Shown here piece after piece: positions 1 to 15,450 of a stretch of 24,000 nucleotides of DNA. Source of the stretch: Candidatus Parcubacteria bacterium (GTDB lineage Bacteria > Patescibacteriota > Minisyncoccia > Phycocordibacterales > Phycocordibacteraceae); NCBI GenBank assembly GCA_022616215.1, contig JAKEFE010000016.1:5175-29174 (forward strand), given 5' to 3'. A model generated the notes under the pieces. That model made no database searches. It was not told the origin of the DNA and was given only the letters and a program-made list of their open reading frames with translations. Made by a program: the position numbers and the translations under genes. The number at the start of each line of letters is the position of its first letter. Position 1 is the first letter of the stretch.

Positions 1-455
1 TCTCCGGCACACAACCCAAGCACAGAAAGTACGCGAAGCGCCGCAAGACATTCGGCGGCATCGGCATCTTTTTCCGAAAGAGTCGGGAGCGCGTCAAGAA
101 ACTCGGAAAAAACATGAAAGAGTTTTGAATCGTGAATTTCACCGTGCACCAACCGGAGAAACAAGCTCGCTATGCGCCCCGCGCGAAGACGCGCGGGTTC
201 ACTTAGTTTTGCAAGCTTATTTTCTATGAGCACCGCTCCCGAAAGCCGCCATCCTTCTTTTCCGCGCACCAGAAGAGCGTGTGTGTGAGCGAGCGTTTGC
301 GCTGCGCAGGAAAGTTTTGCGCCGGATTTGCGAAGCCCCTGTGCACGAGCGCGCACAAGACCAAAGTCGGGCGTCAACAGATGGAGGAGTGCGCTTGCTT
401 CGGAAAGCGGCGAACGAGCGAGCACAATGGCCTCTGTGTCGTACCTAGCGCGCAT
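1..455 (-). CDS. recO: DNA repair protein RecO, N-terminal ~151 codons (3' end runs off the left edge)
   Basis: This frame is not in the supplied ORF track. Hand translation of the minus strand from ATG 455-453 gives MRARYDTEAIVLARSPLSEASALLHLLTPDFGLVRARAQGLRKSGAKLS...LLVRGKEGWRLSGAVL... with no stop down to position 3. That matches the RecO N-terminal OB-fold pattern (aivL...lt...G.v.a.A.G.rk..skl). The start overlaps the ileS stop by 11 nt. Confidence 0.7.
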   Translation of the reverse strand, partial: MRARYDTEAIVLARSPLSEASALLHLLTPDFGLVRARAQGLRKSGAKLSCAAQTLAHTHALLVRGKEGWRLSGAVLIENKLAKLSEPARLRAGRIASLFLRLVHGEIHDSKLFHVFSEFLDALPTLSEKDADAAECLAALRVLSVLGLCAG

Positions 456-3400
456 TGGTTTTCACCTCAAACTTTTCTACGCCCGTAGAAAGCACCACTT
501 CGTAGGGTCCTTTCCCCCATACCACGTCCACCTGGTCTTTGGGTGAAAGCCCCATAGCTTTTCGTGCATCCGCCACCGCGCGCAGTTTCTCGCGCTCATC
601 CCCTTCTTTCACCAGTTCTGGCGTAAGTACCGTATCAAGATGCAGTTCTGTTCCCGAGAGTTTTTTATCAAACACAACCTGCTTCACATTTATTTCCTCC
701 CGCAAAAGTTCAACGAGTTCTGGAGAAAACGGCACGCTGTCAGCTGCAAGCTGCAAGCTCTGTAGTGGTTGGCGCACTTTGATATTCGCCTTTTGCCGAA
801 GCATCAGTGCTTCGGAGGCAAGCGTGCGCACGCGCGCCATCTCTTCAACGAGTTTTTCATCAACAGCTCCTGCTTCCGGCCAGTCTGCCAAATGCACGCT
901 GTCCGGGTCGGCGAGGCTCTTTACGCTGCGGTACATTTCATCTGCAACAAACGGCATGACTGGTGCAGTGAGTTTTGAAAAAGTCAGCAGAACGTATCGC
1001 ATGGTGGCAAGCGCATGCGTCCGATCCTCTCCCATTTCTTTTACGCGTTCGCGCGAACGACGCACATACCACGTTGAAAAATCCTCAACAAATTCTCGCA
1101 TCGGACGCGAAGCATGAACCGTGTCGTATATCTCAAGCGAGTCAGTAATCGTTTTTGCAACTTCGGCAAGCCGAGAAAGTATCCAGCGGTCAAGGACATG
1201 CGGGGAATCCGCTGATGCGGCAACGGTGTCGTCTTGGTAGAGCGTATAAAACTGGAATGTATTGCGAAGAATATTAATGACTCGACCATGTACTTCTTTC
1301 ACGTCTTGGTCTTTGAAATTCAGATCTTCTGATTGCATGACGACGCTTGACATGAGGTAGTAGCGAAGAGCATCGGCTCCGTACTGATTAACAAGAATCA
1401 TCGGATCGGTGAAATTTCCGACGCTTTTGCTCATCTTTTGACCATCACTTGCAAGAATGGTGCCAGTTGAAACGACATTACTAAATGCGCGATGGTTAAA
1501 AAGAAGTACGGCAACGGCATGCATGTAGTAATACCATGTGCGCGTTTGTGCAATGTATTCTGATATGAAATCTCCCGGTGTTCGTTTTTCAAACTCCTCT
1601 TTGTTACGAAACGGATAGTGGTATTCGGCAAACGGCATACAACTAGACTCTACCCAGCAGTCTACGACTTCGGGAGTGCGGGTAAGTAGTTCACCTCGTT
1701 CATTCATCAACTTTACGTCGTCTATATAGGGCAAATGAACATCTAATTCAAAGTTCTCGTTATGAGGAAGCGGCACGAAAGGAAGTTCCCGTACTTCTCC
1801 GTTTTGCGGGTCTCTCGCTTTCTGCCAGTCGTTTAGAAACTCCTGCATGGTGAGTCCGTACGCGGTAGCGGTGAGCATGCGGATGACGGCACTGTGCGTC
1901 ACAAACAACACGGTTTCGTTTTTGTGTTCTTTTTCAAATTCATACAGAAATTCGCTTGCGCGTTTGCGAACGTCGTACCAGCTCTCCCCGCCCTCCGGAC
2001 GCTTGTGCATCATTTCGTCCGTACTGGTGAACGATTCGTGGTACTCCCTGATGGAGCGACCATTCCACACCCCTCCGTTGAGTTCAATAAGCCGTGGCTC
2101 TGTGGAAATGCGTTCATTTGGCAGACCAAGTGCTTCCGCTACCGCCTCCGCTGTTTGCTTCGTGCGGGCAAGCGGCGAACACACGATACGGGTAATGCTT
2201 TTGTCTTTGAGAAGAGCTCCAGCACGAAGCGCTGCTGCTCTGCCAAATTCAGTGAGATTGCCCGGAACAGAGTCGGTACTGTTCAACACATTCTCTACGT
2301 TATTCTCCGACTCGCCATGTCGCATTACAAAATAGTGATTCCCCGATTTCACCGTCAGTTTCTTAAGTTCCTCAAGTGAACCAATAACGGTTATGTCACC
2401 TTTTGCATCTTTCCAAATGGGAAGTGGGCTTGCCCAGAAACGGTTCCTAGAAATGGTCCAATCCGGCGCATTTTCTACGATGTTTTTGAACCGTCCGTGT
2501 TTTAAGTGTTCTGGAAACCAGTAAATCTTTTCGTTCTCATCAAGCATCTTCTGCTTGATTGATTGGGTGTCCACGAACCACGATGGCACGGCGTTATAAA
2601 TGAGCGGTGTGCCACATCGGTAACAGTGCGGATATGAGTGTGTGTACGGTTGAACATCAAACACGAGTGAACGGCTTCTTAGGTCTTCAATTATTTTTCC
2701 ATTCGCTTTTTTGATATGCTCGCCGCGCAGAAATTCCGGCACATCATCGTTATATGTGCCGTTTGAATTAAGGAGTGGAATCATCGGAAGATTTTGTGCT
2801 TTCCCAAGCTCGTAATCGTCTTCTCCGTACATGACTGCGGTGTGCACTATCCCCGTGCCGTCTTCCGTCGTCACAAAACCCGCAGAAACCACTTCCCATT
2901 TTTTCCCTGTGTGTGCTTTCACTTTTTCTATTTCGTACAGCGGTTCGTACTCTACGCCGACCAACTTCTCTCCCTTCACTACAGTTATGTCGTCGTATTC
3001 GGGATTGAAAGCGAAGTCCTTTGTGAGACCGGATGTTGGCTCTACGACCTCAACATTCCCGTGCATGCGTACACATGCCTCTTTCGCGACTACGAGAGAA
3101 ATCTCTGGCTCGGTTTTCTTCTTAAAGACTACGTAGTCGATGTCCTTTCCTACCGCAAGCGCAACGTTTCCGGGCAGAGTCCATGGCGTTGTCGTCCACG
3201 CGAGGAAAAAAGTGTTTTCAGGGAGTCCGTGTTTTTTCGGCTCTTTCACTTTGAACTTCACCGTTACCGCATCTTCCGTGATGTCCCTGTAGGTGTTGTC
3301 CATCGCAATCTCTGCTTTAGCAAGCGGCGTTTCGTCACGCGTGCAATACATGAGCACCCGTCTCCCTCCATAGAGCTTTCCTCTCTTATGGAATTCTTTC

Positions 3401-3885
3401 AATGCCCACCACACGCTCTCCATGAACGTGGCATCCATGGTCTTGTATGAGTTATCAAAATCTACGAAACGTCCGATACGCTCAATGTATCGTTTCCACT
3501 CATGAATGAACTCGAGCACTGTCTCACGTGCCACCATATTAAATTTGCCAATGCCATACGCAAGAATGTCTTTCTTTGATTTCAGTCCGAGTTTCTTTTC
3601 AACGATGCTCTCAATGGGAAGTCCGTGGGTGTCCCATCCCCATCTCCGGCGCACGTGATACCCGCGCATGGTTTTGTATCGCCCAAAAAGGTCTTTGGAG
3701 GTGCTTCCTAGAATGTGGCCGTGGTGTGGCAGTCCTGTGGCAAACGGAGGGCCATCGTAGAAAACGAATTCGCCTTTGTGAGACGGTTTTTCAAGCGAGC
3801 GTTCAAAAACCTTGTTCTCTTTCCACCACAAGAGTATTTCTTCTTCGCGTTTCGCTACGTCTGCTTTGCCTTTATCTTCGGCCAT
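445..3885 (-). CDS. ileS: Isoleucyl-tRNA synthetase (type-2-like) carrying an internal histidine-phosphatase domain insertion
   Basis: 1146-aa ORF. Class I signatures are present: PPFATGLPHHGHILG (HIGH) and DGQKMSKSVGN (KMSKS). IleRS blocks are present: WGWDTHGLPIE, TTTPWTLPGN, PDWTISRNRFWASPLPIW, VVDCWVESSCMPFA. Confidence 0.95.
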   Translation of the reverse strand: MAEDKGKADVAKREEEILLWWKENKVFERSLEKPSHKGEFVFYDGPPFATGLPHHGHILGSTSKDLFGRYKTMRGYHVRRRWGWDTHGLPIESIVEKKLGLKSKKDILAYGIGKFNMVARETVLEFIHEWKRYIERIGRFVDFDNSYKTMDATFMESVWWALKEFHKRGKLYGGRRVLMYCTRDETPLAKAEIAMDNTYRDITEDAVTVKFKVKEPKKHGLPENTFFLAWTTTPWTLPGNVALAVGKDIDYVVFKKKTEPEISLVVAKEACVRMHGNVEVVEPTSGLTKDFAFNPEYDDITVVKGEKLVGVEYEPLYEIEKVKAHTGKKWEVVSAGFVTTEDGTGIVHTAVMYGEDDYELGKAQNLPMIPLLNSNGTYNDDVPEFLRGEHIKKANGKIIEDLRSRSLVFDVQPYTHSYPHCYRCGTPLIYNAVPSWFVDTQSIKQKMLDENEKIYWFPEHLKHGRFKNIVENAPDWTISRNRFWASPLPIWKDAKGDITVIGSLEELKKLTVKSGNHYFVMRHGESENNVENVLNSTDSVPGNLTEFGRAAALRAGALLKDKSITRIVCSPLARTKQTAEAVAEALGLPNERISTEPRLIELNGGVWNGRSIREYHESFTSTDEMMHKRPEGGESWYDVRKRASEFLYEFEKEHKNETVLFVTHSAVIRMLTATAYGLTMQEFLNDWQKARDPQNGEVRELPFVPLPHNENFELDVHLPYIDDVKLMNERGELLTRTPEVVDCWVESSCMPFAEYHYPFRNKEEFEKRTPGDFISEYIAQTRTWYYYMHAVAVLLFNHRAFSNVVSTGTILASDGQKMSKSVGNFTDPMILVNQYGADALRYYLMSSVVMQSEDLNFKDQDVKEVHGRVINILRNTFQFYTLYQDDTVAASADSPHVLDRWILSRLAEVAKTITDSLEIYDTVHASRPMREFVEDFSTWYVRRSRERVKEMGEDRTHALATMRYVLLTFSKLTAPVMPFVADEMYRSVKSLADPDSVHLADWPEAGAVDEKLVEEMARVRTLASEALMLRQKANIKVRQPLQSLQLAADSVPFSPELVELLREEINVKQVVFDKKLSGTELHLDTVLTPELVKEGDEREKLRAVADARKAMGLSPKDQVDVVWGKGPYEVVLSTGVEKFEVKTNAR
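1749..2350 (-). other. In-frame ~195-200 aa histidine phosphatase superfamily (PGAM/CobC-like, branch 1) domain inside ileS; boundaries approximate
   Basis: Motifs read directly from the ileS frame: HYFVMRHGESENN (RHG catalytic His, nt ~2311-2340), CSPLARTKQTAE, EPRLIELNGGVWNG, VTHSAVIRML (second His). They lie between the IleRS blocks VIGSLEEL and DVHLPYIDD. Confidence 0.75.
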
Positions 3886-3899
3886 GAATCTCTATCCTA

Positions 3900-5540
3900 T
3901 TACATCTTCTCTGGTACGGGAATGCCAAGGAGCCAGAGGCCGTTTTTCATGGTGTTCATGAATGCTTTGGCGACTCGTTGTTTGTACGCCTCTTCCGGAC
4001 TACCAAGCACCTGCTCACTTGCATAGAAAGAGTTCCAGGCAGAAGCAAGCTCTGTAAGATATTGCGTCACATAGTGAGGGGCGCGCTCGCGCTCAGCACG
4101 GAGCACTACTTCAGGGAATCGAATAAGGATGCGTTCAATAACATACGGCTCATCTGGAACTTCCGTACCCGCACCCTCCGACTCGTAGCTCACAATCTTC
4201 TTTGCACGCACATATGCATACTGAAGATACGGCCCAGAGTCCCCATCAAGCGAGAGAGACTTTTCAGGATCAAATATGATGTCGCCCCCAGGTGCTGCTC
4301 GCAAAATCATGTACTTGATAGCGGCCAAGGCCACCTGTTCGGCAATGAGCGGATCGTCATTCTTCTTACTTGCCTCTTCTATTACGTCAGTAATGAGCGA
4401 CTCGCCGGTAATAACGTTACCGGTGCGAGACGACATTTTCCCACTCGTAAGCCTAAGAAAGCCGTTCGGAATATGGAGCGTCTTTGCGCCAAGCGCAGGA
4501 GCAACATCTTCAAGTGCAGCCTTCACCACCTTAAAGTGGCCAATCTGCTCAACCGATGTACAGATGAGTGAGAGGTCAGAGGGCCAACGCTCTTCCTTAA
4601 GAAATGCGAGCCCGAGCTCTTTTGCTTCATAGGTAGGTGTACCCCGTGAGGTGATGAATACCAAGGTGTGCAGCCCCTTCTTCTCCCCCTCATATATCAC
4701 TGCGCCGTCACTCTCCGTGAAGACTTGAGGAGTGTGCTTTTTCACAAGTTCCGTCCCAGACTCCGCCACTTCGCTCTCAAAGAAGTAGTAATCAAACTTG
4801 GTACCAAGCTTTTTGTAGATGACTTCAAACGCTTCAAGTGATATTGCGCGTCCCTTGCGCCACAGCTCCATGAGCTCACGGTCTTCGCCTTTATAAATAG
4901 CAAGGTTGAGCGCGTCTATTTCTGCTTTTGCTTTTTCGCTCTCCTCATATGCTCGTGAGCCGTGAGCATATGCCTTGCCTAGTTCGGCAGCTGTGGCGGG
5001 TTCTGTACTACCAGCTTCGATAAGTCCCCATATCGCTCGCGCAACGTGGGGACCTACGTCTCCTTGGTAGTTTGCTCTGGAAACGGTTGCCCCAGAAAAT
5101 TCAATGAGCCGAGAAACAGACTCACCGATGATGTTGCTCATCAAGTGTCCGATGTGCATCTCTTTGAAAGGGTTTGGTTGTGTATACTCAACCATTATTC
5201 GCTTACCCGTATTCGCATCTCCCCCACCCCACATATCCTCTTCAGAGGCAGTTGCGACACCTTCTCTCACCGCGTCTTTTGAAAGGGTGATGTTGATGAA
5301 ACCGGGACCGGCGACTTCCACGCGAGAGGCGTCTTTGCCGAGCGCTTCTTTGATGAGAGGCGCGAGCTCGCTGGCGAGCTCGCGGGGATTTTTGGCAAGG
5401 TGTTTGGCAGCGGCAAGGGCGGCGTTTACCGCAAAGTCTCCGTGGGCAAGGTCAGCTGGCCACTCAACGACAAAATCAACGTCGCCTGCCCCCGCTTTTA
5501 AAAGCGCGTCTTTGGTCGCTTGCCTAATCTTTTCCTCCAT
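3900..5540 (-). CDS. argS: Arginyl-tRNA synthetase
   Basis: 546-aa ORF. It has the VEVAGPGFINITL block in the N-terminal domain, the HIGH-type motif EMHIGHLMSN, and a DALR-like C-terminal region ending ...GIPVPEKM (terminal Met is typical of ArgRS). It lies 14 nt upstream of ileS. Confidence 0.93.
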   Translation of the reverse strand: MEEKIRQATKDALLKAGAGDVDFVVEWPADLAHGDFAVNAALAAAKHLAKNPRELASELAPLIKEALGKDASRVEVAGPGFINITLSKDAVREGVATASEEDMWGGGDANTGKRIMVEYTQPNPFKEMHIGHLMSNIIGESVSRLIEFSGATVSRANYQGDVGPHVARAIWGLIEAGSTEPATAAELGKAYAHGSRAYEESEKAKAEIDALNLAIYKGEDRELMELWRKGRAISLEAFEVIYKKLGTKFDYYFFESEVAESGTELVKKHTPQVFTESDGAVIYEGEKKGLHTLVFITSRGTPTYEAKELGLAFLKEERWPSDLSLICTSVEQIGHFKVVKAALEDVAPALGAKTLHIPNGFLRLTSGKMSSRTGNVITGESLITDVIEEASKKNDDPLIAEQVALAAIKYMILRAAPGGDIIFDPEKSLSLDGDSGPYLQYAYVRAKKIVSYESEGAGTEVPDEPYVIERILIRFPEVVLRAERERAPHYVTQYLTELASAWNSFYASEQVLGSPEEAYKQRVAKAFMNTMKNGLWLLGIPVPEKM

Positions 5541-5566
5541 AGCAAGGAGTGTAACAAAAGTCCTGG

Positions 5567-6820
5567 TTATTCAAACGATTCAGGGACAGGGCGAGCGGTA
5601 GCAAGTTCCTTAATACGAGCTTTAGCATTCCCTACTGCTGCCTCACGGTTTTTAAGGATATCTACCATGAGTTCCGCCACCTCTCTGCATTCTTTCTCCT
5701 TAAAACCGCGTGTGGTGATGGCAGGGGTGCCCAAACGAATGCCTGAAGGGTCCATCGGACGACGAGGATCGTCAGCAATAACGTTTTTGTTGAGCGTGAT
5801 GTTCGCTTCGTCCAACAGCTTTTCTGCTTCTCCGCCGGACATTCCAAACGACGATACGTCCGCGAGAACAAGGTGGTTGTCCGTGCCGCCGGTGATAAGG
5901 CGCATATTATGTTGAGAAAAGACCTCTGCCATCGCTTTCGCGTTTTTGATTATCTGCCTTGTATATTCTTTAAATGACGGCCGCAGAGCCTCGCCAAAAC
6001 ACACCGCTTTGGCCGCAATCATGTTCATCAAAGGGCCTCCCTGAAATCCGGGGAATACTGATTTGTTTATCTTCTTTGCGAGCTCTTCGTTTTCACGCGT
6101 GAGAATGATGCCTCCGCGAGGACCTCTCAGCGTTTTGTGCGTTGTGGAAAGCATGACGTCAAACCCGTACTGAAAAGGGTTTTTGAGAGCGCCTCCGGCA
6201 ATAAGTCCTGCAATGTGCGCCACGTCTGCAATGACAACAGCATCAACTTCCCTGCCGATAGAAACGAACTTTTCGTAATCAAGCTCCCGCGGATACGCAG
6301 AGAAACCAGCCATGATGACTTTCGGTTTTTCTTTCTTCGCTATCTCACGCATTTCCTCGTAATCAATAGCACCTGTCCCAGCATCTTTCATCTTGTAACG
6401 AACGAAATTGAATATCTTGGTGATGTAGGTTACCGGATGTCCGTGGGTGAGGTGTCCTCCGTGTGAAAGATCCATGCCCATGATGGTGTCGTCCGGCTCC
6501 ATGAGCGCAAAATAGGTAGCAATATTTGCTGGTGCTCCGGCGTGAGGTTGTACATTTGCGAAACTCGCGCCAAATAATTTCTTCGCGCGTTCGATAGCGA
6601 GCGTTTCTACTTGGTCGGTAAATTCTTGCCCGCCGTAGTAGCGCCTGCCCGGATACCCTTCCGAATATTTATTGGTCAAAACGCTTCCCATCGCTTCGCG
6701 AACTGCGTGCGAAACGTAGTTTTCAGATGGAATAAGCTCAAGCCCTTCTGCTTGGCGCTTTTCCTCTCCTTCTAATGTTCCGTATACTTCCGAGTCCTCC
6801 TTCTTGATATGTTCGTACAT
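5567..6820 (-). CDS. glyA: Serine hydroxymethyltransferase
   Basis: 417-aa ORF with SENYVSHAVREAMGSVLTNKYSEGYPGRRYYGG and the PLP-lysine motif STTHKTLRGPRGG. Confidence 0.95.
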   Translation of the reverse strand: MYEHIKKEDSEVYGTLEGEEKRQAEGLELIPSENYVSHAVREAMGSVLTNKYSEGYPGRRYYGGQEFTDQVETLAIERAKKLFGASFANVQPHAGAPANIATYFALMEPDDTIMGMDLSHGGHLTHGHPVTYITKIFNFVRYKMKDAGTGAIDYEEMREIAKKEKPKVIMAGFSAYPRELDYEKFVSIGREVDAVVIADVAHIAGLIAGGALKNPFQYGFDVMLSTTHKTLRGPRGGIILTRENEELAKKINKSVFPGFQGGPLMNMIAAKAVCFGEALRPSFKEYTRQIIKNAKAMAEVFSQHNMRLITGGTDNHLVLADVSSFGMSGGEAEKLLDEANITLNKNVIADDPRRPMDPSGIRLGTPAITTRGFKEKECREVAELMVDILKNREAAVGNAKARIKELATARPVPESFE

Positions 6821-6878
6821 GAATAGGAGTGTACCGCGCCCTCCCGAAAGGACATGGGGACAGCAAAAATGCGCACGC

Positions 6879-6884
6879 TATACT
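6879..6884 (+). promoter_or_regulatory. -10-like hexamer TATACT, 9 nt upstream of the dcd ATG
   Basis: The sequence reads cgcTATACTgtgccgaacATG, with no purine-rich Shine-Dalgarno between the hexamer and the start. The same architecture recurs at other operon-leading genes (see findings). Confidence 0.35.
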
Positions 6885-6893
6885 GTGCCGAAC

Positions 6894-7598
6894 ATGGCGT
6901 TATCCGACCGGCGAATCCTCGAGGAGCTCAAAAAAGGCGACATCGTCATTCACCCGTTTGATAAAAGTCATTTGGCAACTTCAAGTTACGACGTAACGCT
7001 TGGTGAATGGTTTTATCGCGAACAGCCGCCTCAATACAACCACAGTTTGTATAACATCTGGAGTCGCGAACATTCCGAACACGTCTGGGGCGCAGATAAG
7101 TGCGAGCGAGCGGTATTCGCAAAAGAAGCGTTTAAAAAATACAATTTCAACTGGGATGGTATTCGGCCAGATGACAAAGTCATTGTGCTGCGCCCCGGAG
7201 AAACCATCCTCGCTCACACGGAAGAATTCATCGGCGGCAAAGACCACATCACGACCATGATGAAAGCGCGGAGTTCCATGGGACGTAACTTCATTGAAGT
7301 ATGTAAGTGCGCTGGCTGGGGGGACGTAGGGTATGTAAACCGATGGACGATGGAAATAACGAATAACTCAAAGAATTACCTCATCCCGCTCGTTGTCGGG
7401 CGTCGCATCGCACAACTCATCTTTTTTGAGACCGGACCAATACTGGCGAGCGACTACGCCGCGCACGGTAAATACGCCTCGTCAACGAATGTGAAGAAGC
7501 TTGCAAAGATGTGGAAGCCGGAGGACATGCTCCCCAGACTCTGGCGTGACCGCGACCGCGAAAAACGCCAACCATGGCACCGAAAAAAGAGAGCATGA
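6894..7598 (+). CDS. dcd: dCTP deaminase family protein (Dcd/dUTPase-fold)
   Basis: The start was trimmed to the ATG at 6894 (MALSDRRILEELKKGDIVIHPFD...SSYDVTLG). Dcd-type motifs are LRPGETILAHTEE, ARSSMGR, GWGDVGY and TMEITN (catalytic Glu). The TGA stop overlaps the next start as ATGA. Confidence 0.85.
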   Translation: MALSDRRILEELKKGDIVIHPFDKSHLATSSYDVTLGEWFYREQPPQYNHSLYNIWSREHSEHVWGADKCERAVFAKEAFKKYNFNWDGIRPDDKVIVLRPGETILAHTEEFIGGKDHITTMMKARSSMGRNFIEVCKCAGWGDVGYVNRWTMEITNNSKNYLIPLVVGRRIAQLIFFETGPILASDYAAHGKYASSTNVKKLAKMWKPEDMLPRLWRDRDREKRQPWHRKKRA

Positions 7599-8677
7599 TG
7601 CGACCTCATTTCATCGCAGCGACCACGATGAATGAGCTGATTTTCAAGGCACTGGATACCATTTCCCATGACGGCATACGCACACCTTCGCGAAACGGCG
7701 AGACCAGTACGCTCTACAACACCTTCTTCACGCTGACGAACCCGCGCTCGCGGCATTTGAACCTCAAGGGCCGCAAGAACAACGTCTTCGCAATGATTGC
7801 CGAGACGTTCTGGGTACTCGCCGGACATGACGCACTTGATCCCGTGATGACCTTCTTCCTGCCACGCGCTAAGGATTTTTCCGACGACGGCATCACCTGG
7901 CGCGGCGCGTACGGACCGCGTCTCTATCTCTACAACCAGCTTGAAGACGCGGTGCGCGTCTTTCACGAGGAAGGGCTTGAAAGCCGCCGGTCGGTCATCG
8001 CCATTTACCTGCCGGAACGTGATACCAAGGAGAGCTTGAAAGAGATATACCACTTGGAAAACACGAAAGACCGACCATGCAACAACCTGCTCCACTTCTT
8101 CGTAACGCCCGACCAAAAGCTCCACATGAACGTATACCAGCGCTCTGGCGACGTGGTGTGGGGTATGGGAAGCATCAACGTGTTTGAGTGGACCGTCTTG
8201 CATGAGTTTGTCACAGGCGAGGTGCGCCGCCGCTCAAGCAAGGACGTGACGCTCGGCACCTACAATCATTTCGTTACCAATCTTCACCTCTACGACTTCA
8301 CCGGAGAGCAGGGGCGCGCAGTGCTTGAGAACAAAGATGCCCACGACTTCACTTCTGAAAATACAAAACCGCTCATTTTCCCGGAGGGCGTCGACGGAAT
8401 GAGGCGCTTCGCCACCGATTTGCTTGCCACATACGCGCACGCCATCGAAAGCAAGGAGCGCAACCACGAGACACTCATGCGCGAGGTGCGTGGCGTCTTT
8501 GATTTCCACAAGGTGTCTTGCAACGGCAATCTTCTTCCGGCGTATGCAGAACTTGCGGCCGCGTACATCACTACCAAGAACGGAAACCCCGACGTGTCCG
8601 TGTCGCTTGAGGGACACGACGAGGAGTTTGTGTCGAGCGTCCGGGACTCACACTTCAGGAAGTTCAAGCTCGTATGA
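7595..8677 (+). CDS. Thymidylate synthase (ThyA) superfamily pyrimidine C5-(hydroxy)methylase, divergent, with a ~100 aa C-terminal extension
   Basis: ThyA-like blocks are present: IAETFWVLAG, GAYGPRLY, SRRSVIAIY, DRPCNN (catalytic Cys), YQRSGDVVWGMGSIN (R-S-x-D plus the Asn that reads uracil), TNLHLY. I chose the start at 7595 (ATGA overlap with dcd); an alternative ATG lies at 7574. Confidence 0.75.
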   Translation: MMRPHFIAATTMNELIFKALDTISHDGIRTPSRNGETSTLYNTFFTLTNPRSRHLNLKGRKNNVFAMIAETFWVLAGHDALDPVMTFFLPRAKDFSDDGITWRGAYGPRLYLYNQLEDAVRVFHEEGLESRRSVIAIYLPERDTKESLKEIYHLENTKDRPCNNLLHFFVTPDQKLHMNVYQRSGDVVWGMGSINVFEWTVLHEFVTGEVRRRSSKDVTLGTYNHFVTNLHLYDFTGEQGRAVLENKDAHDFTSENTKPLIFPEGVDGMRRFATDLLATYAHAIESKERNHETLMREVRGVFDFHKVSCNGNLLPAYAELAAAYITTKNGNPDVSVSLEGHDEEFVSSVRDSHFRKFKLV

Positions 8678-9306
8678 CCTGCGGCGCGACCCCACAACAC
8701 CTCATCACCAGCATCGTCGCGCTTCAAGCGGAAAAGGAGCATGCGTACGGAGTGGATTGGAAACGTTTCGGCTTGGTCTCTTCTTTCTTCAATGTGTACC
8801 GCAAGCTTATCCGACTTCGCACGGTCTTCGAGCGCGGGTGGAAGCCCACGGCAGATGACACGCGACTGGACACCATTATTGACCTTTTGAACTACCTCAT
8901 CCTCTCGGTGCTCCTGCATGCGGAGCTCTTTCCGGAGGCATTTCGCACGGTGATAGGCACCGAGCACGCACCAGAGGATTTTCCGACAAACCGACACGGC
9001 TTTGCCCGATTTGCGACAGAAGTCTTGTTACCGAGCATCGCGAAGGTGAAGCCCGCCGAAGCCATACCGGACATCATCGCGACTGGCGAGCGCGCCATTG
9101 AGGCGTGGCTTGTGGCAATCGGACAGATGAGTGAAGAACTTGCCGGACAAAAAACAGTGTGCGCTCCCGGACCCGCCCTCATGGATGATGCCGACCGGCT
9201 CGCCGCTATTCATTCGATGATTCTGTTGTGCGTAGCCGCGGCTCTTGCCCATGTAAAAACCTGCCCTGATGAGTGGGAGCGGTTCGTCACGCGCTACGGC
9301 ACATAA
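8674..9306 (+). CDS. DUF1599 / nucleotide-modification-associated domain 1 (Nmad1)-like protein with an uncharacterised C-terminal half
   Basis: The N-terminal ~95 aa fit the DUF1599 pattern as I remember it: K..aYG..W...g......v..Kl.Rl........d..lDt..Dl.NY (KEHAYGVDWKRFGL...YRKLIRLRTV...DDTRLDTIIDLLNYL). The start overlaps the upstream stop as ATGA. The family call is from memory, not a search. Confidence 0.5.
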   Translation: MTCGATPQHLITSIVALQAEKEHAYGVDWKRFGLVSSFFNVYRKLIRLRTVFERGWKPTADDTRLDTIIDLLNYLILSVLLHAELFPEAFRTVIGTEHAPEDFPTNRHGFARFATEVLLPSIAKVKPAEAIPDIIATGERAIEAWLVAIGQMSEELAGQKTVCAPGPALMDDADRLAAIHSMILLCVAAALAHVKTCPDEWERFVTRYGT

Positions 9307-9309
9307 CAC

Positions 9310-9334
9310 AAAGCCCCGCTCTCGCGGGGCTTTT
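9310..9334. terminator. Bidirectional intrinsic terminator between the convergent 8674..9306 gene and rplK
   Basis: AAA-GCCCCGC-tctc-GCGGGGC-TTTT: a 7-bp GC stem, a 4-nt loop, and A/T tracts on both sides. Confidence 0.7.
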
Positions 9335-9336
9335 GT

Positions 9337-9756
9337 TTACTTCACGTCTACGCCCATGCTCCTCGCTGTGCCTTCAATGATGCGGTCTGCCGCTTCCGGA
9401 GATGCAGCATTCAAATCCGGCATTTTTTGCTCTGAAATCTCGCGCACCTGCGTTTTGGTAAGCGTGCCCGCTTTTTTGGATGGCGTTTTTCCAGAACCTT
9501 TATCAATGCCAAGCTTCTTCAAAATGAGACGTGAGGCTGGAGGAGTTTTGAGTACGAATGAGAACGTGCGGTCCTCGTAGACAGAAAGGTCAACGGGAAT
9601 GATGTCTCCCATCTTGTCCCTAGTCGCCTCGTTGAATTTGCTGACAAAATCTCCAATGTTGACACCCGCAGGCCCGAGCACGGTACCCACCGGCGGCGCA
9701 GGGGTAGCTTTGCCTGCCGGGATTTGGAGTTTTATTTTTTTAACGACTTTAGCCAT
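9337..9756 (-). CDS. rplK: 50S ribosomal protein L11
   Basis: 139-aa ORF: [34 protein letters not shown]...KTPPAS..., a full-length L11 pattern. Confidence 0.95.
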
Positions 9757-9773
9757 GGTGAAAAGACTCTATA

Positions 9774-10343
9774 TTAGAGTTTGCGGATTTGCAAAAAATC
9801 GAGTTCCACCGGCGTTTCGCGTCCGAACATGGAAACAAGCACTTTGACCTTGCCGCGCTCTTCGTCCACCTCACCTACTTTGCCTTCAAGATCTTTGAAC
9901 GGTCCGTCGTTAATGACCACCGGATCGTCTTTTGCAAGGTCAATGCGGTGTTTGGGCGCCTCCTGATCCATGCGCTTCATCAAGAGTGCCACTTCGGCGT
10001 CTTCCATGGGTACTGGTGTGGTGCCGCTTCCTACAAAGCCGGTAACGCGCGGAGTGTTGCGAACCACAAACCACGAATCTTCGTCCACAATCATGTGCAC
10101 CAAAATGTAACCCGGGTAGATTTTTTCTTCCTCAACGACGCGTTTGCCGCCTTTGACCCGCACTTTCTTTTCGGTGGGCACCACGACCTCAAAAATCTTA
10201 TTCCCCATGCCCAAGGACTCAATGCGCTGTTTCAAGTTCCGCTCTACCGCGTTTTCATATCCCGCGTAGGTATGAATGGAGTACCAGCGCGGTTCAGGGT
10301 TTTTCGCGTCTTCTGAAAATTGCGGCGAGGTGTACGTTTCCAT
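9774..10343 (-). CDS. nusG: Transcription termination/antitermination factor NusG
   Basis: The start was trimmed to the ATG at 10343 (METYTSPQF...). It has an NGN domain (RWYSIHTYAGYENAVERNL...PGYILV) and a KOW domain (VINDGPFKDLEGKVGEVDEERGKVKVLVSMFGRETPVEL). It sits 4 nt after the secE stop. Confidence 0.9.
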   Translation of the reverse strand: METYTSPQFSEDAKNPEPRWYSIHTYAGYENAVERNLKQRIESLGMGNKIFEVVVPTEKKVRVKGGKRVVEEEKIYPGYILVHMIVDEDSWFVVRNTPRVTGFVGSGTTPVPMEDAEVALLMKRMDQEAPKHRIDLAKDDPVVINDGPFKDLEGKVGEVDEERGKVKVLVSMFGRETPVELDFLQIRKL

Positions 10344-10347
10344 ATCG

Positions 10348-10527
10348 TTAGATGATGATGCCGACGAGACTAGTAAGCAGGTAGTCAAGCACGCCGATAC
10401 ATACCGCAACAAAGGCGGAGATGGCAAGAATGAGAAGCGTGTGCATAAGTGCCTGCCGAGATTTTGGCCACACAACATGCGTGAGTTCTCCGCGCACATT
10501 TTTGAGATAGCTGAAAAGGTTTTTCAT
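10348..10527 (-). CDS. secE: Preprotein translocase subunit SecE
   Basis: The start was trimmed to the ATG at 10527. The 59-aa product is MKNLFSYLKNVRGELTHVVWPKSRQALMHTLLILAISAFVAV..., the typical SecE pattern (E..KV.WP) with a single TM helix. The canonical secE-nusG-rplK order supports the call. Confidence 0.8.
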   Translation of the reverse strand: MKNLFSYLKNVRGELTHVVWPKSRQALMHTLLILAISAFVAVCIGVLDYLLTSLVGIII

Positions 10528-10550
10528 TCCGGTAGTTGCCCTTTGATTTT

Positions 10551-10572
10551 TAAAAGGCGCCCCGCGGGCGCT
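10551..10572 (-). terminator. Candidate intrinsic terminator upstream of secE, ending the SIMPL gene transcript
   Basis: The minus strand reads GCGCCC-gcg-GGGCGC followed by CTTTTAAAAAT. The stem is short (6 bp), so support is only moderate. Confidence 0.4.
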
Positions 10573-10653
10573 TATACCCATGAGTATACCAAAAACGACA
10601 AAGCGGTCAAGGGAGTACACAAGCCCCTGTTCGAGGGCTTGTGTGTGTCTGTT

Positions 10654-12296: not shown

Positions 12297-12968
12297 CTAC
12301 GGTGCTACTTGCAAACGCTCTAAAAGACGAATGAGTGCGCGGTGCTCTGGCAGTTCAATGACAGAAAGATCTGGATTAATCCAATCTGTCACGTCGTGTT
12401 CAATAATATCAAAGCGAAGCACATCGTTTGCGCGCGCTAGGTAAAACGCGCTGTGCACGATTGCCTCAAAGCGCTCAATAACCGTGGTGCGGTACGTCGT
12501 GCCATTGATGAGCATGGTATCAAAACGATCAAAGTTTTCCGCCTGCATGTCGGCCGGATAGTACACCGTGTGCCTAAGCATGACATCGTCTGCTGTTTGT
12601 CCTTCGGGTATGGGGTGTTGCCGGATGATGATGGTGTGCGGCGCCTCTTCAAAGGAAGCGGGTTTGACAAATGTGGCGATGAGCGAAGGATCTGCGCCGT
12701 ACGCGTTTTCGTCGGCGGCATAGTCTTCCGGCATAATGAATGCAATACTGGCATCAGTCACCTCAACATTTGGCGGCGGACACGGGGCAAATGCGCATGA
12801 AGGGCCCATGCGTCCGACCGCGGAGCCGTCCGGACAGAGTTTGGCTTCAAGAGTGCATGCGGTTACGTTTCCTCCTCCTGGGTTGGTACGCTCCATCACA
12901 TCGCGGTAGAAAAAACCGCCCAGGCCGATAACGATGATGAGCACAATACCGAACAAGAGCGTTTTCAT
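12297..12968 (-). CDS. Hypothetical membrane-anchored or secreted protein with an N-terminal four-Cys motif
   Basis: The GAGGAA upstream of the ATG is the only clear SD-like element I saw in the window. It has an N-terminal TM helix (MKTLLFGIVLIIVIGLGGFF) and then CTLEAKLCPDGSAVGRMGPSCAFAPCPPP. No family was recognised for the remainder. Its stop abuts the convergent ZIP stop with 0 nt spacing. Confidence 0.6.
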   Translation of the reverse strand: MKTLLFGIVLIIVIGLGGFFYRDVMERTNPGGGNVTACTLEAKLCPDGSAVGRMGPSCAFAPCPPPNVEVTDASIAFIMPEDYAADENAYGADPSLIATFVKPASFEEAPHTIIIRQHPIPEGQTADDVMLRHTVYYPADMQAENFDRFDTMLINGTTYRTTVIERFEAIVHSAFYLARANDVLRFDIIEHDVTDWINPDLSVIELPEHRALIRLLERLQVAP

Positions 12969-12990
12969 TTCCTCACAATATCACGCTATC

Positions 12991-13065
12991 TGGGGCGACC
13001 AGAGAGAATTGAACTCTCGATGCCTGGACCACAACCAGGAGTTTTACCACTAAACTATGGTCGCC
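12991..13065 (-). tRNA. tRNA-His (anticodon GTG), with encoded G-1 and encoded CCA
   Basis: Hand-folded cloverleaf: G-1 + GCGACCA / TGGTCGC + C73 + CCA. D arm GTTT-AGTGGTA-AAAC. Anticodon arm CCTGG-TTGTGGT-CCAGG. T arm GAGAG-TTCAATT-CTCTC. Confidence 0.85.
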
Positions 13066-13544
13066 ATGAACGCCTCGCGGTCTTTCTCATAATGATGCAC
13101 GAGAAAGTGACAATTGTGACAAAGCCATGCGAGATTCTCTAAGTTATTGTTTTTCCGGTTCTTGTCAATGTGGTGGGCGGCAAGTACCCGGATGTCCTCA
13201 GTCTTGCATAATCGGCATCTTTTTGGAACCTTATTTCTTTCTAACACTGCTCGGTATGCATTTTCTCCCGTTTTAAAATTTGCGTGCTTCTCGCCTATAT
13301 AGAGTTGATTTCTCCAGCGCGTTTGACAACTTTTGCCGCAGAAAAATTTTCCGCTCTTAGAGTTTAGGAGAGCCTTGGGTTGTTTATATGAAGGAACACC
13401 ACATATGTCGCATATGATTTCTTTTCCCATACGCATTCCTTTATGGTGACAAGCAGAAGAGCAGTATTTTCCATACCCTTTCTTGAGCCAAAAAGGTTTT
13501 GCATTGAACGAGCGAGAACAGCTCTGACACGAGACCACCGGCAT
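13050..13544 (-). CDS. HNH endonuclease with two N-terminal zinc-ribbon-like repeats
   Basis: 164-aa ORF. The HNH core is AAHHIDKNRKNNNLENLAWLCHNCHFLVHH. It has two CxxC...C..(H/C) repeats: CQSC...YCSSACHHKG and CDIC...FCGKSCQTRW. The last 16 nt, including the TAG stop, lie inside tRNA-His. Confidence 0.85.
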   Translation of the reverse strand: MPVVSCQSCSRSFNAKPFWLKKGYGKYCSSACHHKGMRMGKEIICDICGVPSYKQPKALLNSKSGKFFCGKSCQTRWRNQLYIGEKHANFKTGENAYRAVLERNKVPKRCRLCKTEDIRVLAAHHIDKNRKNNNLENLAWLCHNCHFLVHHYEKDREAFMATIV

Positions 13545-14069: not shown

Positions 14070-14684
14070 TTATGCCGCAGTTTTCTCTTCTTCTTTCTCC
14101 TCAACTGCCGGAACTTCGGCAATCATCTCTTCAGGACTTTCCTCACCAAGCGGCTCGCTTGCGGCAATGGCGGCGTTTGCGGATGCTTCGGCCTCTACTT
14201 CGTCAGCTTTCTCGGCTAAATCAATCTGCTTAGCAGATTGATCGCCCGACGCATCCTTTGATGCGTCTAGGGCAAAATCCGTTGTAGAAACGTTCATTAT
14301 GCGCATATTGCGAAGCTGGCGCTTTACTTCGCGGGCAACTTTTTCACGAATGAAATACAGTTTGGCGCGGCGAACCTTTGATCGTTTGACTATTTCAATT
14401 TTCTCAATAAATGGAGCGTAGAGCGGGAAAATACGTTCAACCCCGATGCCCGAGAGAGTCGCGCGCACGGTAAAAGAAGCGCCTGCTTCTTTTCCGTGTT
14501 TGACCGCGATAACAAGGCCTTCAAATACCTGTGTACGGGCGTTGCTCGTCGTTGTCTCTTTTTTGTTGGCGGCCTTGCCTTTTTTGGTCTCAACAATTTT
14601 TTGGTGAACGCGCACCGTGTCCCCCGGCTTGATGCCAAGCTTGGTGCGTTCCTCTACTTTGACGGGAGTAATAACTTTTTCCAT
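14070..14684 (-). CDS. rplS: 50S ribosomal protein L19 with an internal insertion and a long acidic C-terminal tail
   Basis: The start was trimmed to the ATG at 14684 ([12 protein letters not shown]...). The L19 core is [12 protein letters not shown]...[20 protein letters not shown]....[34 protein letters not shown]. About 85 extra Ala/Glu/Asp-rich residues follow. Confidence 0.9.
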
Positions 14685-14709
14685 GAGTGGCCGCACTCTA
14701 ACACAAGTG

Positions 14710-15450
14710 CTAGTCCGCGGCAAACCGTTCTGCGGCTTCCAAAAAGTCTGCGGGCGGGGGTGCCACAAACGTCTTTCGCTCGCCCGACGGAAGGGTGATG
14801 GAGAGCGTTGAGGCATGGAGCGCCGGACGTACAAACCCCAACAGACAGGGTTTTCCTGCCGCATATATAGGGTCACAAATGATGGGGTGTCCAACATATC
14901 TCATGTGTACGCGCAGTTGATGCGTGCGACCGGTTTTAGGCGACAGTACCATATATGACACCGGCTCATTCGTCTTAGTGTCGCTCCCGCGTATTTCAAC
15001 GTTCCAGGTCGTTATCGCCGCCCGATGTTTTTTATCCTCCCCTTCGCGCATCACACCCCAGCGCGGCGGCATGGACCGAAGGCGCACGATTTCTTTTTCA
15101 ATAGTTCCCGCATCTTTTTTCGGATGTCCGTACACATATGCGGCGTATGTTTTTTCCGTAGTCCGACTTCCGAATTGTTCTTTGAGAAATGCGTGCGCCT
15201 CCTGCGTCTTTGCAAGTATGAGTGCGCCGGAGGTTGTTTTATCCAGCCGGTGCACGATGCCCGGGCGCGCGATGGTTTCTCCCTGCGGGGTAACGAGCGG
15301 CTCGCCCACCTCTGCCGTCTGCGGATACTTGTTCACCACCCATTCGGTTACCGAATACTCCTTATTGCGGCCGTCCGGATGCACGATAAGCCCCGCCGGT
15401 TTGTCTATGACCAGTACGTTGTCGTCTTCATACAGAACGGTTGGCTTCAT
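14710..15450 (-). CDS. RluA-family pseudouridine synthase (no S4 domain)
   Basis: 246-aa ORF with [14 protein letters not shown], the catalytic Asp motif [18 protein letters not shown], and [10 protein letters not shown]. Confidence 0.9.

Follow-up and report, generated by a model that had tools for sequence, protein, structure and literature searches.

The replacement or hypermodification of thymidine by way of 5-hydroxymethyldeoxyuridine (5-hmdU) is known as a strategy of phages. A phage homologue of thymidylate synthase (ThyA) makes the corresponding monophosphate (5-hmdUMP), which is then incorporated into DNA, and a 5-hmdU DNA kinase (5-HMUDK) phosphorylates 5-hmdU within the DNA as the entry to hypermodification; the genes for these enzymes co-associate (PMC5889632, PMC8989533). 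In phages such as PhiW-14 and SP10, an in situ conversion turns the 5-hmdU of the DNA into thymidine (for part of the bases) or into the hypermodified base, by an unknown route (Lee et al. 2018). Here, we analyzed a stretch of 24,000 nts (the window) on contig JAKEFE010000016.1 of a Candidatus Parcubacteria bacterium (GCA_022616215.1), which belongs to the candidate phyla radiation (CPR). The window contains a cassette of three coupled plus-strand open reading frames (ORFs) at positions 6894-9306, divergent from the serine hydroxymethyltransferase (SHMT) gene glyA: gene 1 (dcd), gene 2 (encoding a ThyA-superfamily enzyme) and gene 3 (encoding a divergent, all-helical Nmad1/DUF1599 protein). 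On balance, we lean toward the explanation that this cassette is a chromosomal, phage-derived 5-hmdUMP module that stands in place of thyA and the dihydrofolate reductase (DHFR) gene and feeds a modification of thymidine in DNA.

Several described systems can be compared with the cassette. In the SPO1-type 5-hmdU programme of Bacillus phages (gp29 and gp30 of SPO1, gp188 and gp189 of SP10), the ThyA homologue belongs to the same clade as gene 2 and has the same signature residues and C-terminal extension, an Nmad1-type protein is encoded beside the hydroxymethylase, and a deaminase supplies dUMP, as gene 1 would here. The cassette differs in its location, as it occupies a housekeeping locus of a cellular chromosome, where it is coupled to the host dcd and lies opposite glyA; moreover, SPO1 gp29 is only ~30% identical to gene 2, and the phage dNMP kinase and dTMPase are not in the window. 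The hypermodification clusters of phages ViI, M6/YuA and PaMx11 combine a dUMP hydroxymethyltransferase with 5-HMUDK and downstream enzymes (Lee et al. 2018, 2021). A 5-HMUDK orthologue is likewise encoded by the source genome, and HD/YfbR-like and P-loop kinase partners recur in related CPR loci; however, no downstream transferase, pyridoxal phosphate-dependent, radical-SAM or similar enzyme was found here, the kinase is unlinked, and the carrier is a bacterium rather than a virus. Phages of the Ackermannviridae have a dUTPase_2 protein where the source lineage has the Nmad1 protein.

Compared with the canonical ThyA-DHFR-SHMT cycle, gene 2 has the same fold, nucleophile, folate donor and slot beside glyA and dcd, but W80, L143, H147 and the C-terminus of ThyA are changed, DHFR is absent, and the predicted products are 5-hmdUMP and tetrahydrofolate (THF) instead of dTMP and dihydrofolate (DHF). 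The dCMP hydroxymethylase gp42 of phage T4 and its partner, the dCTPase/dUTPase gp56, follow the same logic of a hydrating ThyA homologue and an all-helical nucleotide-handling protein, and D143 is shared with gene 2. The T4 enzyme differs in its dCMP substrate, in the Asp at the base-specifying site (Asn in gene 2) and in having no C-terminal extension. Among solved structures, the best relative of gene 2 is another hydroxymethylase, the CMP hydroxymethylase MilA (PDB 5b6d/5jnh; 2.6e-17 over residues 36-252), and ThyA was matched at 5e-3. MilA, however, acts on a cytosine ribonucleotide for the antibiotic mildiomycin and has Asp where gene 2 has Asn, and no natural-product context is present here.

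Gene 2 and the thymidylate slot

The first-pass annotation, made from the DNA letters alone, had assigned the three genes to the dcd, ThyA-like and Nmad1-like families beside glyA, and these assignments hold: gene 1 matches Pfam DCD (109.8 bits, 1.7e-31; cut-off 27), gene 2 matches Thymidylat_synt (PF00303) at 38.7 bits, partially and only over profile positions 95-225, gene 3 matches DUF1599 (PF07659) at 19.5 bits, which is under the cut-off of 25, and the divergent gene matches SHMT at 2.8e-152. When gene 2 was compared with the NCBIfam equivalogs of ThyA, the best score was 37.9 bits (cut-off 174.55) and the others were 14-34 bits (cut-offs 108-427); for comparison, the ThyAs of the genus score 123-416 bits. 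The phage family phrog_3676 was matched by gene 2 at 275 bits. A tblastn search against 50,697 phage records matched 555 of them, all at <60% identity, and the full-length matches came from Vibrio Ackermannviridae phages (~40% identity); gene 2 is 36-40% identical to the Ackermannviridae enzymes. Every one of the sampled matches with known DNA chemistry was a 5-hmdU phage, including ViI and its relatives, SPO1 (gp29), SP10, YuA, PaMx11 and M6-like phages.

A maximum-likelihood tree was built from 44 sequences, including nine canonical ThyAs from E. coli and CPR bacteria. A branch with 100/100 support parts these nine from a clade of gene 2, the phage enzymes (SPO1 gp29, annotated as dUMP hydroxymethylase, and those of SP10, YuA, PaMx11, ViI and Vibrio Ackermannviridae) and T4 gp42, whose branch is very long and whose placement is unsure. 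The middle protein of the cassette was thus split from ordinary ThyA, with which the first-pass annotation had considered that it might cluster tightly. The sister of gene 2 (support 100/97) is a CPR protein in which the gene 2 and gene 3 domains are fused. Gene 2 is a member of the phage dUMP-hydroxymethylase clade.

Examination of individual residues (E. coli numbering) revealed that gene 2 retains R21, E58, Y94, R126, C146, R166, S167, D169, N177, H207 and Y209, has the changes W80A, L143D and H147N, and has no aligned counterpart of the ThyA C-terminus (V262-A263-I264). This pattern matches every phage dUMP hydroxymethylase in the alignment, such as those of ViI and the Vibrio phage, which have A80/D143/N147. 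The Asn at the base-specifying position 177 fits uracil, whereas an Asp there fits cytosine. Gene 2 and the phage enzymes also have in common a helical C-terminal extension of ~100 amino acids (aa), so that their lengths are 360-367 aa and 346-383 aa, respectively, compared with 264 aa for ThyA. In ThyA, W80, L143 and the C-terminal carboxylate presumably enclose the exocyclic-methylene intermediate, which is resolved by hydride from the folate and not by water; we take these groups, together with H147, to shield the intermediate and to position the folate for hydride transfer. Replacement of W80, L143 and the C-terminus is therefore what would be expected of a hydroxymethylase, and the products of gene 2 are predicted to be 5-hmdUMP and THF. 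The identification of gene 2 as an ordinary ThyA was rejected on the basis of the failed equivalog cut-offs, the 100/100 branch, the signature residues and the lack of a DHFR partner in the 81% complete assembly.

The gene order ileS-argS-glyA, thymidylate slot, rplK-nusG-SIMPL is conserved across the genus, and glyA orthologues (54-76% identical) adjoin the slot in 49 of 60 genus genomes. We examined the slot contents in ten relatives, and found either dcd with canonical thyA and DHFR (in all seven ThyA loci) or thyX without DHFR. Across the 61 genomes of the genus, ThyA (47 genomes) and ThyX (8 genomes, two of them under the family cut-off) show a complementary pattern, and the divergent gene-2-type enzyme is present in one genome only, that of the source organism. 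Searches of the remaining 60 genus genomes, and of a 400-genome sample of the phylum, did not reveal genes 2 and 3. Therefore, where the first-pass annotation had envisaged that the three genes might not be syntenic in related genomes, a split answer emerged: dcd and the glyA-side slot are syntenic across the genus, and genes 2 and 3 are not.

The source genome consists of 399 kb in 36 contigs and is 81% complete. Its size, its relatives and the affinity of homologues to Magasanikbacteria identify a CPR/Patescibacteria-type bacterium. The conserved place of thyA and DHFR is fully assembled in it and is occupied by genes 2 and 3, which are a lineage-specific replacement at the thymidylate slot. 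Gene 2 is the only ThyA-superfamily gene in the assembly; no thyA, thyX, DHFR gene (folA), dut, tmk, tdk or AAA_28-type kinase gene was detected in the assembled 81%, where DHFR gave neither a PF00186 nor a tblastn match and no trimeric dUTPase was found. It had been remarked in the first-pass annotation that no DHFR gene is present in the window, and this proved apt, as the relatives with ThyA keep DHFR in the slot and the source genome has none there. The absence of DHFR fits a THF-releasing enzyme, either a hydroxymethylase or, as in the relatives without DHFR, ThyX.

The arrangement of the cassette is not an assembly artefact. An 8,727-bp Logan contig from an independent assembly of the probable source run covers positions 5000-10600 with zero differences, and the junctions glyA/dcd, dcd/gene 2, gene 2/gene 3 and gene 3/rplK are each bridged by short contigs that come from two other samples of this sediment study. 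Twelve of the 14 population differences inside the cassette are synonymous. The cassette genes are real, contiguous and under purifying selection. Among the sequencing runs listed for this stretch, none was an RNA run.

A second case was observed in Magasanikbacteria GCA_002793015.1 (L024, ~12650-13473; also L025 and L026), in which the canonical thyA beside DHFR is a pseudogene. It is broken by an in-frame stop at the W80 codon and by two frame changes, all identical in three independent assemblies, and the hydroxymethylase::Nmad1 fusion gene 3 kb away is intact. This genome represents a second CPR lineage without a conventional thyA but with an intact hydroxymethylase::Nmad1 gene.

Gene 1 is a vertically inherited protein of the dCTP deaminase family and, judging from its orthologues in the same slot of relatives (64-83% identical), appears to be an old resident there. 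It scores 87.9 bits against TIGR02274, slightly under the cut-off of 92.8. Its seven strongest solved-structure matches comprise two M. tuberculosis proteins, one protein of unstated organism and otherwise M. jannaschii proteins; no match to E. coli Dcd was obtained at E <= 0.001. The M. jannaschii matches carry depositor names that call them bifunctional or dUMP-forming, and we take the M. tuberculosis and remaining matches to be bifunctional enzymes likewise. A dUMP-forming (bifunctional DCD:DUT) activity of gene 1 is plausible from these relationships, and would make a separate dUTPase unnecessary. In two relatives, dcd and thyA were seen to be joined: a 665-aa protein consisting of a long-type Dcd and a canonical ThyA is encoded at L029 4557-6554, and a 511-aa open frame spans thyA and dcd in genome G042 (L015 4012-5544).

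Gene 3 and the 5-hmdU DNA kinase

All 11 members of the gene 3 family match DUF1599, the 'nucleotide modification associated domain 1', at best with 1.8e-4 and all under the cut-off, and the family profile reaches hundreds of short DUF1599-like regions. An AlphaFold model of gene 3, built on its family alignment, is all-helical (pLDDT 86.7, pTM 0.85) and resembles Atlas DUF1599 clusters (TM 0.61/0.67) and a viral Nmad1 cluster (TM 0.56/0.72); a dUTPase_2 cluster comes next among the nearest predicted structures. The language-model neighbours of gene 3 at 0.90-0.92 are all clusters in which 16-75% of members have DUF1599.

The three closest relatives of gene 2, which come from CPR genomes (585-590 aa, 59-64% identity), are fusions of gene 2 and gene 3, and their C-terminal domains are 43-51% identical to the gene 3 product (P0003). 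A search of 1.8 billion proteins with the P0003 family profile found many proteins of 490-600 aa matched at residues ~340-480, and 21 of the 31 long matches tested have an N-terminal thymidylate-synthase-like domain. In bacterial loci encoding a gene-2-type enzyme, the Nmad1 domain is fused to it in 30 of 80 cases. The split form with overlapping genes recurs in another CPR contig and in L132. On the phage side, gene 3 had no tblastn match in the 50,697 phage records even at E <= 1, and it took profiles to find an Nmad1-type domain in SP10 gp189 (L122 3632-4081), directly after the SP10 hydroxymethylase, and in SPO1 gp30 (L038 4833-5513), two genes after gp29; Pfam detects no such domain in either protein. 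They are annotated only as 'DNA replication' (the GenBank note of gp30) or 'replication protein'. Three phage families (phrog_1485, phrog_22490 and phrog_27321) are common to P0003, its relatives and gp30. On these comparisons, gene 3 is identified as a homologue of SPO1 gp30 that corresponds, in split form, to the C-terminal domain found in hydroxymethylase::Nmad1 fusions. Fusion and adjacency make its predicted partnership with gene 2 firm, and it probably serves as the nucleotide-handling partner of that enzyme. A complex prediction for the two proteins (alignments A3 and A1) gave a score of 0.00, which is evidence neither way.

Outside the window, contig C28 of the source genome encodes a protein that matches 5-HMUDK (PF18723) at 51.1 bits (cut-off 25), with a predicted 5-hmdU DNA kinase activity. 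It is 58-65% identical to the kinases that adjoin the fusion in CPR locus L028 and the gene 3 homologue in L029. Kinases of this family are rare in the genus (three of 61 genomes). The C28 gene is divergent from an amidophosphoribosyltransferase gene (purF; L031 3004-4455, minus strand), a presence observed in a very reduced genome. The idea that this PurF-like neighbour displaces the phosphate with ammonia was dropped, as it is a bona fide purF (TIGR01134, 447 bits; cut-off 350).

A 5-hmdU DNA kinase adjoins all CPR fusions. The order in the Magasanikbacteria genome is an unknown protein, the fusion, an HD/YfbR-like protein, 5-hmdU DNA kinase, GNAT, DHFR, dUTPase, a kinase and dCMP deaminase, with tmk and a deoxyribosyltransferase gene nearby and ftsK, gatB and rplA as flanks. 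In L028, thyA-dcd-folB-DHFR diverge from an AAA_28 kinase gene and the fusion, which are followed by the DNA kinase, dUTPase and SHMT genes, and in L135 the DNA kinase gene comes directly after the fusion. The relative at genus level, L029, has in the same slot the Dcd::ThyA fusion, HIT, the DNA kinase, a gene 3 homologue overlapping the kinase stop, and then glyA. For the other neighbours of the CPR fusions (the 397-aa, 120-aa, inositol-phosphatase-like and GNAT proteins), the source genome yielded no homologues.

In bacteria at large, 60 of the 80 loci with a gene-2-type enzyme also encode a kinase homologue no more than 8 kb away from it. On the chromosome of Sanguibacter sp. Z1732 (L062 7809-10596), a thymidylate synthase (TS)-like::Nmad1 fusion and a 5-HMUDK (332 bits) are encoded within an element resembling an integrative and conjugative element (ICE), with a TrwC relaxase, a tyrosine integrase, and TIR and SLOG genes. 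It appears from this locus that the 5-hmdU module is also carried by conjugative or mobilisable elements and not by phages alone. A different operon (L131 1003-4074) encodes a gene 3 homologue, an HD/YfbR-like protein, a short TS-like enzyme (284 aa) and a 5-HMUDK. Its TS-like enzyme has D143 and T147 but retains W80, is only ~22% identical to ThyA, and seems to represent a third, very divergent hydroxymethylase-like type.

Proposed pathway and competing explanations

The cassette may operate as follows. Dcd, the resident of the slot, would deaminate dCTP, most likely straight to dUMP in the manner of bifunctional DCD:DUT enzymes. Gene 2 would then place the methylene of 5,10-methylene-THF on C5 of dUMP, with water instead of hydride resolving the intermediate (dUMP + CH2-THF + H2O -> 5-hmdUMP + THF), and SHMT would regenerate the one-carbon donor of gene 2, 5,10-methylene-THF, from THF. 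Since THF and not DHF would be released, the divergent SHMT alone could close the folate cycle, and DHFR would be unneeded. Gene 3 would work with gene 2, and its fold suggests binding or hydrolysis of a pyrimidine deoxynucleotide, such as dUTP or dTTP. The 5-hmdUMP would be phosphorylated and incorporated, and the C28 kinase would then act on 5-hmdU within the DNA, so that the bacterium's own genome would probably contain thymidine derivatives that are phosphorylated or processed further. A horizontal gain of genes 2 and 3, ultimately from phage-like sources, probably displaced thyA and DHFR at the locus. As for dTTP, it might come from salvage, from genes in the unassembled part of the genome, or from a post-replicative conversion of 5-hmdU to thymidine. 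A bolder version, which we put forward only tentatively and regard as rather doubtful, is that the cell has no conventional thymidylate synthesis and builds its own chromosome with 5-hmdU by a phage-derived hydroxymethylase::Nmad1 system, after which phosphorylated or hypermodified thymidine would be kept or thymine would be made after replication via the 5-hmdU DNA kinase, with Nmad1 (the SPO1 gp30 family) as an essential enzyme of the pathway. In this version, the modification could help an episymbiont that scavenges DNA to distinguish its own DNA from what it imports, and could protect it against the nucleases of phages and hosts.

Several observations weigh against the proposal of a 5-hmdUMP module. 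Sequence alone cannot prove that gene 2 hydroxymethylates rather than methylates. The 5-hmdU DNA kinase of the source genome lies on another contig than the cassette, and its orthologues do not always accompany a hydroxymethylase: L029 has one beside the gene 3 homologue with no hydroxymethylase in view, and genome G072 of the same genus has one (L033 1279-2325; E 4.5e-140 to the CPR kinase profile) together with ThyX and with no detectable gene-2-type enzyme or gene 3 homologue. L028 retains an intact thyA and DHFR beside its fusion; as it keeps both systems, coexistence is possible and replacement is not obligatory. No kinase that could convert 5-hmdUMP to its diphosphate was found in the source assembly, and at 81% completeness thyA, thyX, tmk, a dNMP kinase or DHFR gene could sit in the unassembled part.

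The predicted role of gene 3 is affected as well. When its model was compared with 48,161 solved chains, the top two were dimeric dUTPases (5myd_A, Z 7.3 over 142 aa; 1w2y_A, Z 6.5 over 140 aa), a middling likeness, as such Z values are common for helical bundles. Foldseek against PDB returned nothing at E <= 0.001, and the sequences of solved structures gave only a chance-level match (E 0.11). An hhalign comparison with two phage dUTPase_2 proteins reached 17% probability, and in this weak alignment, which is too uncertain to be decisive, the ExxE...ExxD metal ligands fall on K44, R47, T67 and D70 of gene 3. Because the Z values are uncompelling and the ligands are not conserved in the register of that profile match, a dUTP/dTTP pyrophosphatase is one weakly supported possibility for the modeled protein. 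The first-pass annotation had suggested a dUTP pyrophosphatase for the helical third protein; the nearest fold, that of dimeric dUTPases, agrees with this, but the metal-binding acids are not conserved in the one weak alignment, and a Dcd of the bifunctional type, which gene 1 resembles most, would leave no need for a further dUTPase.

It is also conceivable, though unlikely in our judgment, that gene 2 is a true but divergent thymidylate synthase that displaced thyA xenologously, and that the cassette is a plain module from dCTP through dUMP to dTMP in which gene 3 is an accessory subunit or dUTPase. Gene 2 lies in the exact slot held by thyA or thyX in every examined relative, is coupled to the resident dcd, has all the core catalytic residues for C6 attack and folate activation, and is the only candidate of its superfamily in the assembly of a cell that needs thymidylate; in the Magasanikbacteria genome, furthermore, it is the canonical thyA that has decayed and the fusion that is intact. 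These points are countered by the 100/100 branch that separates gene 2 from ThyA and nests it among phage hydroxymethylases, by the replacement of W80, L143, H147 and the C-terminal carboxylate exactly as in hydroxymethylases, by the absence here of the DHFR found beside ThyA in 7/7 slots of relatives, and by the co-occurrence of the clade with a kinase that acts on 5-hmdU in DNA. The self-contained route from dCTP through dUTP and dUMP to dTMP, which the first-pass annotation had offered as one possibility, is disfavored. Its alternative, a chromosomal pathway to 5-hmdUMP or modified thymidine, is favored by the phage clade and signature residues of gene 2, the Nmad1 fusion partner and the 5-hmdU DNA kinase.

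Two other explanations concern the fate of the product and the status of the genes. A transient 5-hmdU, incorporated, phosphorylated by the DNA kinase and reduced to thymidine after replication so that mature DNA is largely canonical, is in our opinion improbable. An in situ conversion of this kind is reported for phages of the PhiW-14/SP10 type (Lee et al. 2018), the genome encodes hydroxymethylase and kinase, whereas thyA, thyX and tmk were not found in its assembly, and the neighbor of gene 3 homologues is the hydroxymethylase in some loci and the kinase in another; however, no enzyme for the reduction step is known or was identified here, the route would be costly for a reduced genome, and the case depends on absences in an incomplete assembly. 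Still less probable is that genes 2 and 3 are passenger phage or mobile DNA, whether neutral, decaying or modifying only transferred DNA, or, as a variant, that they make a small-molecule product as MilA does for mildiomycin. The pair is indeed absent from the 60 genus and 400 phylum genomes, has relatives on phage genomes and in the ICE-like element, and has MilA as its closest solved structure. Nevertheless, no integrase, phage or transfer genes occur among the ORFs scanned in the window, where ileS, argS, glyA, rplK and nusG form the flanks; the ORFs are intact and under purifying selection, and their translation is coupled to that of a vertically inherited dcd; the pair would be redundant with a canonical enzyme that is absent from its conserved position; the Asn that specifies the base suits uracil and not the cytosine of MilA; and the partner in the genome is a DNA kinase rather than a natural-product cluster.

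The protein families involved are already known from phages. What is new is the setting at a cellular housekeeping locus of a CPR bacterium with an apparent loss of thyA and DHFR, the recognition by sequence that Nmad1 is homologous to SPO1 gp30 and regularly accompanies the hydroxymethylase, fused or adjacent to it, and the frequency of the hydroxymethylase-kinase module in bacterial chromosomes (three quarters of the loci surveyed). In the literature searched, no paper names both "Patescibacteria" and "hydroxymethyluracil". If the proposal of a chromosomal 5-hmdUMP module is true, this would be a rare case of a non-canonical DNA chemistry that has become fixed in a cell, and would be relevant to the ways in which CPR bacteria shield or mark their very small genomes. 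Some library preparations are impaired by modified thymidine, so that the sequencing of such genomes would also be affected, and the entry 'ThyA present' in metabolic reconstructions could be wrong. Because Nmad1/DUF1599, including SPO1 gp30, is tied to the dUMP hydroxymethylase by fusion, adjacency and a possible dimeric-dUTPase-like fold, this family, which has long lacked an assignment, is directly testable. The module of hydroxymethylase and 5-HMUDK is not confined to phages, but is common in bacterial chromosomes, including an ICE-like element.

Gene layout and neighboring genes

The coordinates of the cassette and its surroundings are listed below. The ATGA overlaps that join the three genes (7595-7598 and 8674-8677), the terminator and the 73-bp divergence from glyA, all described in the first-pass annotation, were confirmed. 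Such overlaps are frequent in operons.

Features of the cassette and its borders (window positions)
Feature	Position	Strand	Basis
glyA, serine hydroxymethyltransferase, 417 aa	5567..6820	-	Pfam SHMT 2.8e-152; NCBIfam NF000586 567 bits
Divergent intergenic spacer, 73 bp	6821..6893		sequence
Gene 1, dcd (P0001), 234 aa	6894..7598	+	ATG 6894, TGA 7596-7598; Pfam DCD
Gene 2, ThyA-superfamily enzyme (P0002/P0012), 360 aa from Met at 7595	7595..8677	+	phrog_3676, tree, residues
Gene 3, divergent Nmad1/DUF1599 all-helical protein (P0003), 210 aa	8674..9306	+	TAA 9304-9306
Hairpin terminator between the cassette and convergent rplK-nusG	9310..9333		10-bp stem with 7 G-C pairs, 4-nt loop

The longest open frame of gene 2 begins upstream, at an in-frame ATG at 7574. 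As its homologues align to the Met at 7595/7598, and as the first residue of the catalogued product P0012 is encoded at 7595, the overlap start is the likely start of gene 2. The terminator hairpin was detected on both strands, with a good T-tail on the plus strand and a poorer one on the minus strand. In the glyA/dcd spacer, a promoter-like site at 6857-6884 (GGGACA-16-TATACT) faces the cassette, a match to the consensus pattern only.

The flanks of the window consist of housekeeping genes, with ileS, argS and glyA on one side and rplK, nusG, a SIMPL protein gene, a ZIP transporter gene and then tRNAs on the other. No integrase, phage, transfer or mobile-element genes were found among the window ORFs scanned; on this ground, and with GC barely raised in the cassette (0.54-0.55, compared with 0.49-0.53 in the flanks), an origin of the window as a prophage or mobile element was rejected.

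Two flanking ORFs on the minus strand have unusual structures. The ileS gene (445-3885, 1146 aa) has a histidine-phosphatase domain (His_Phos_1) inserted at residues 519-684, and the ileS of L029 is alike. An ORF of 275 aa at 14070-14897 has the domain of ribosomal protein L19 only at residues 88-192 and overlaps a pseudouridine synthase ORF (14710-15450), which may reflect a miscalled start or an extended protein.

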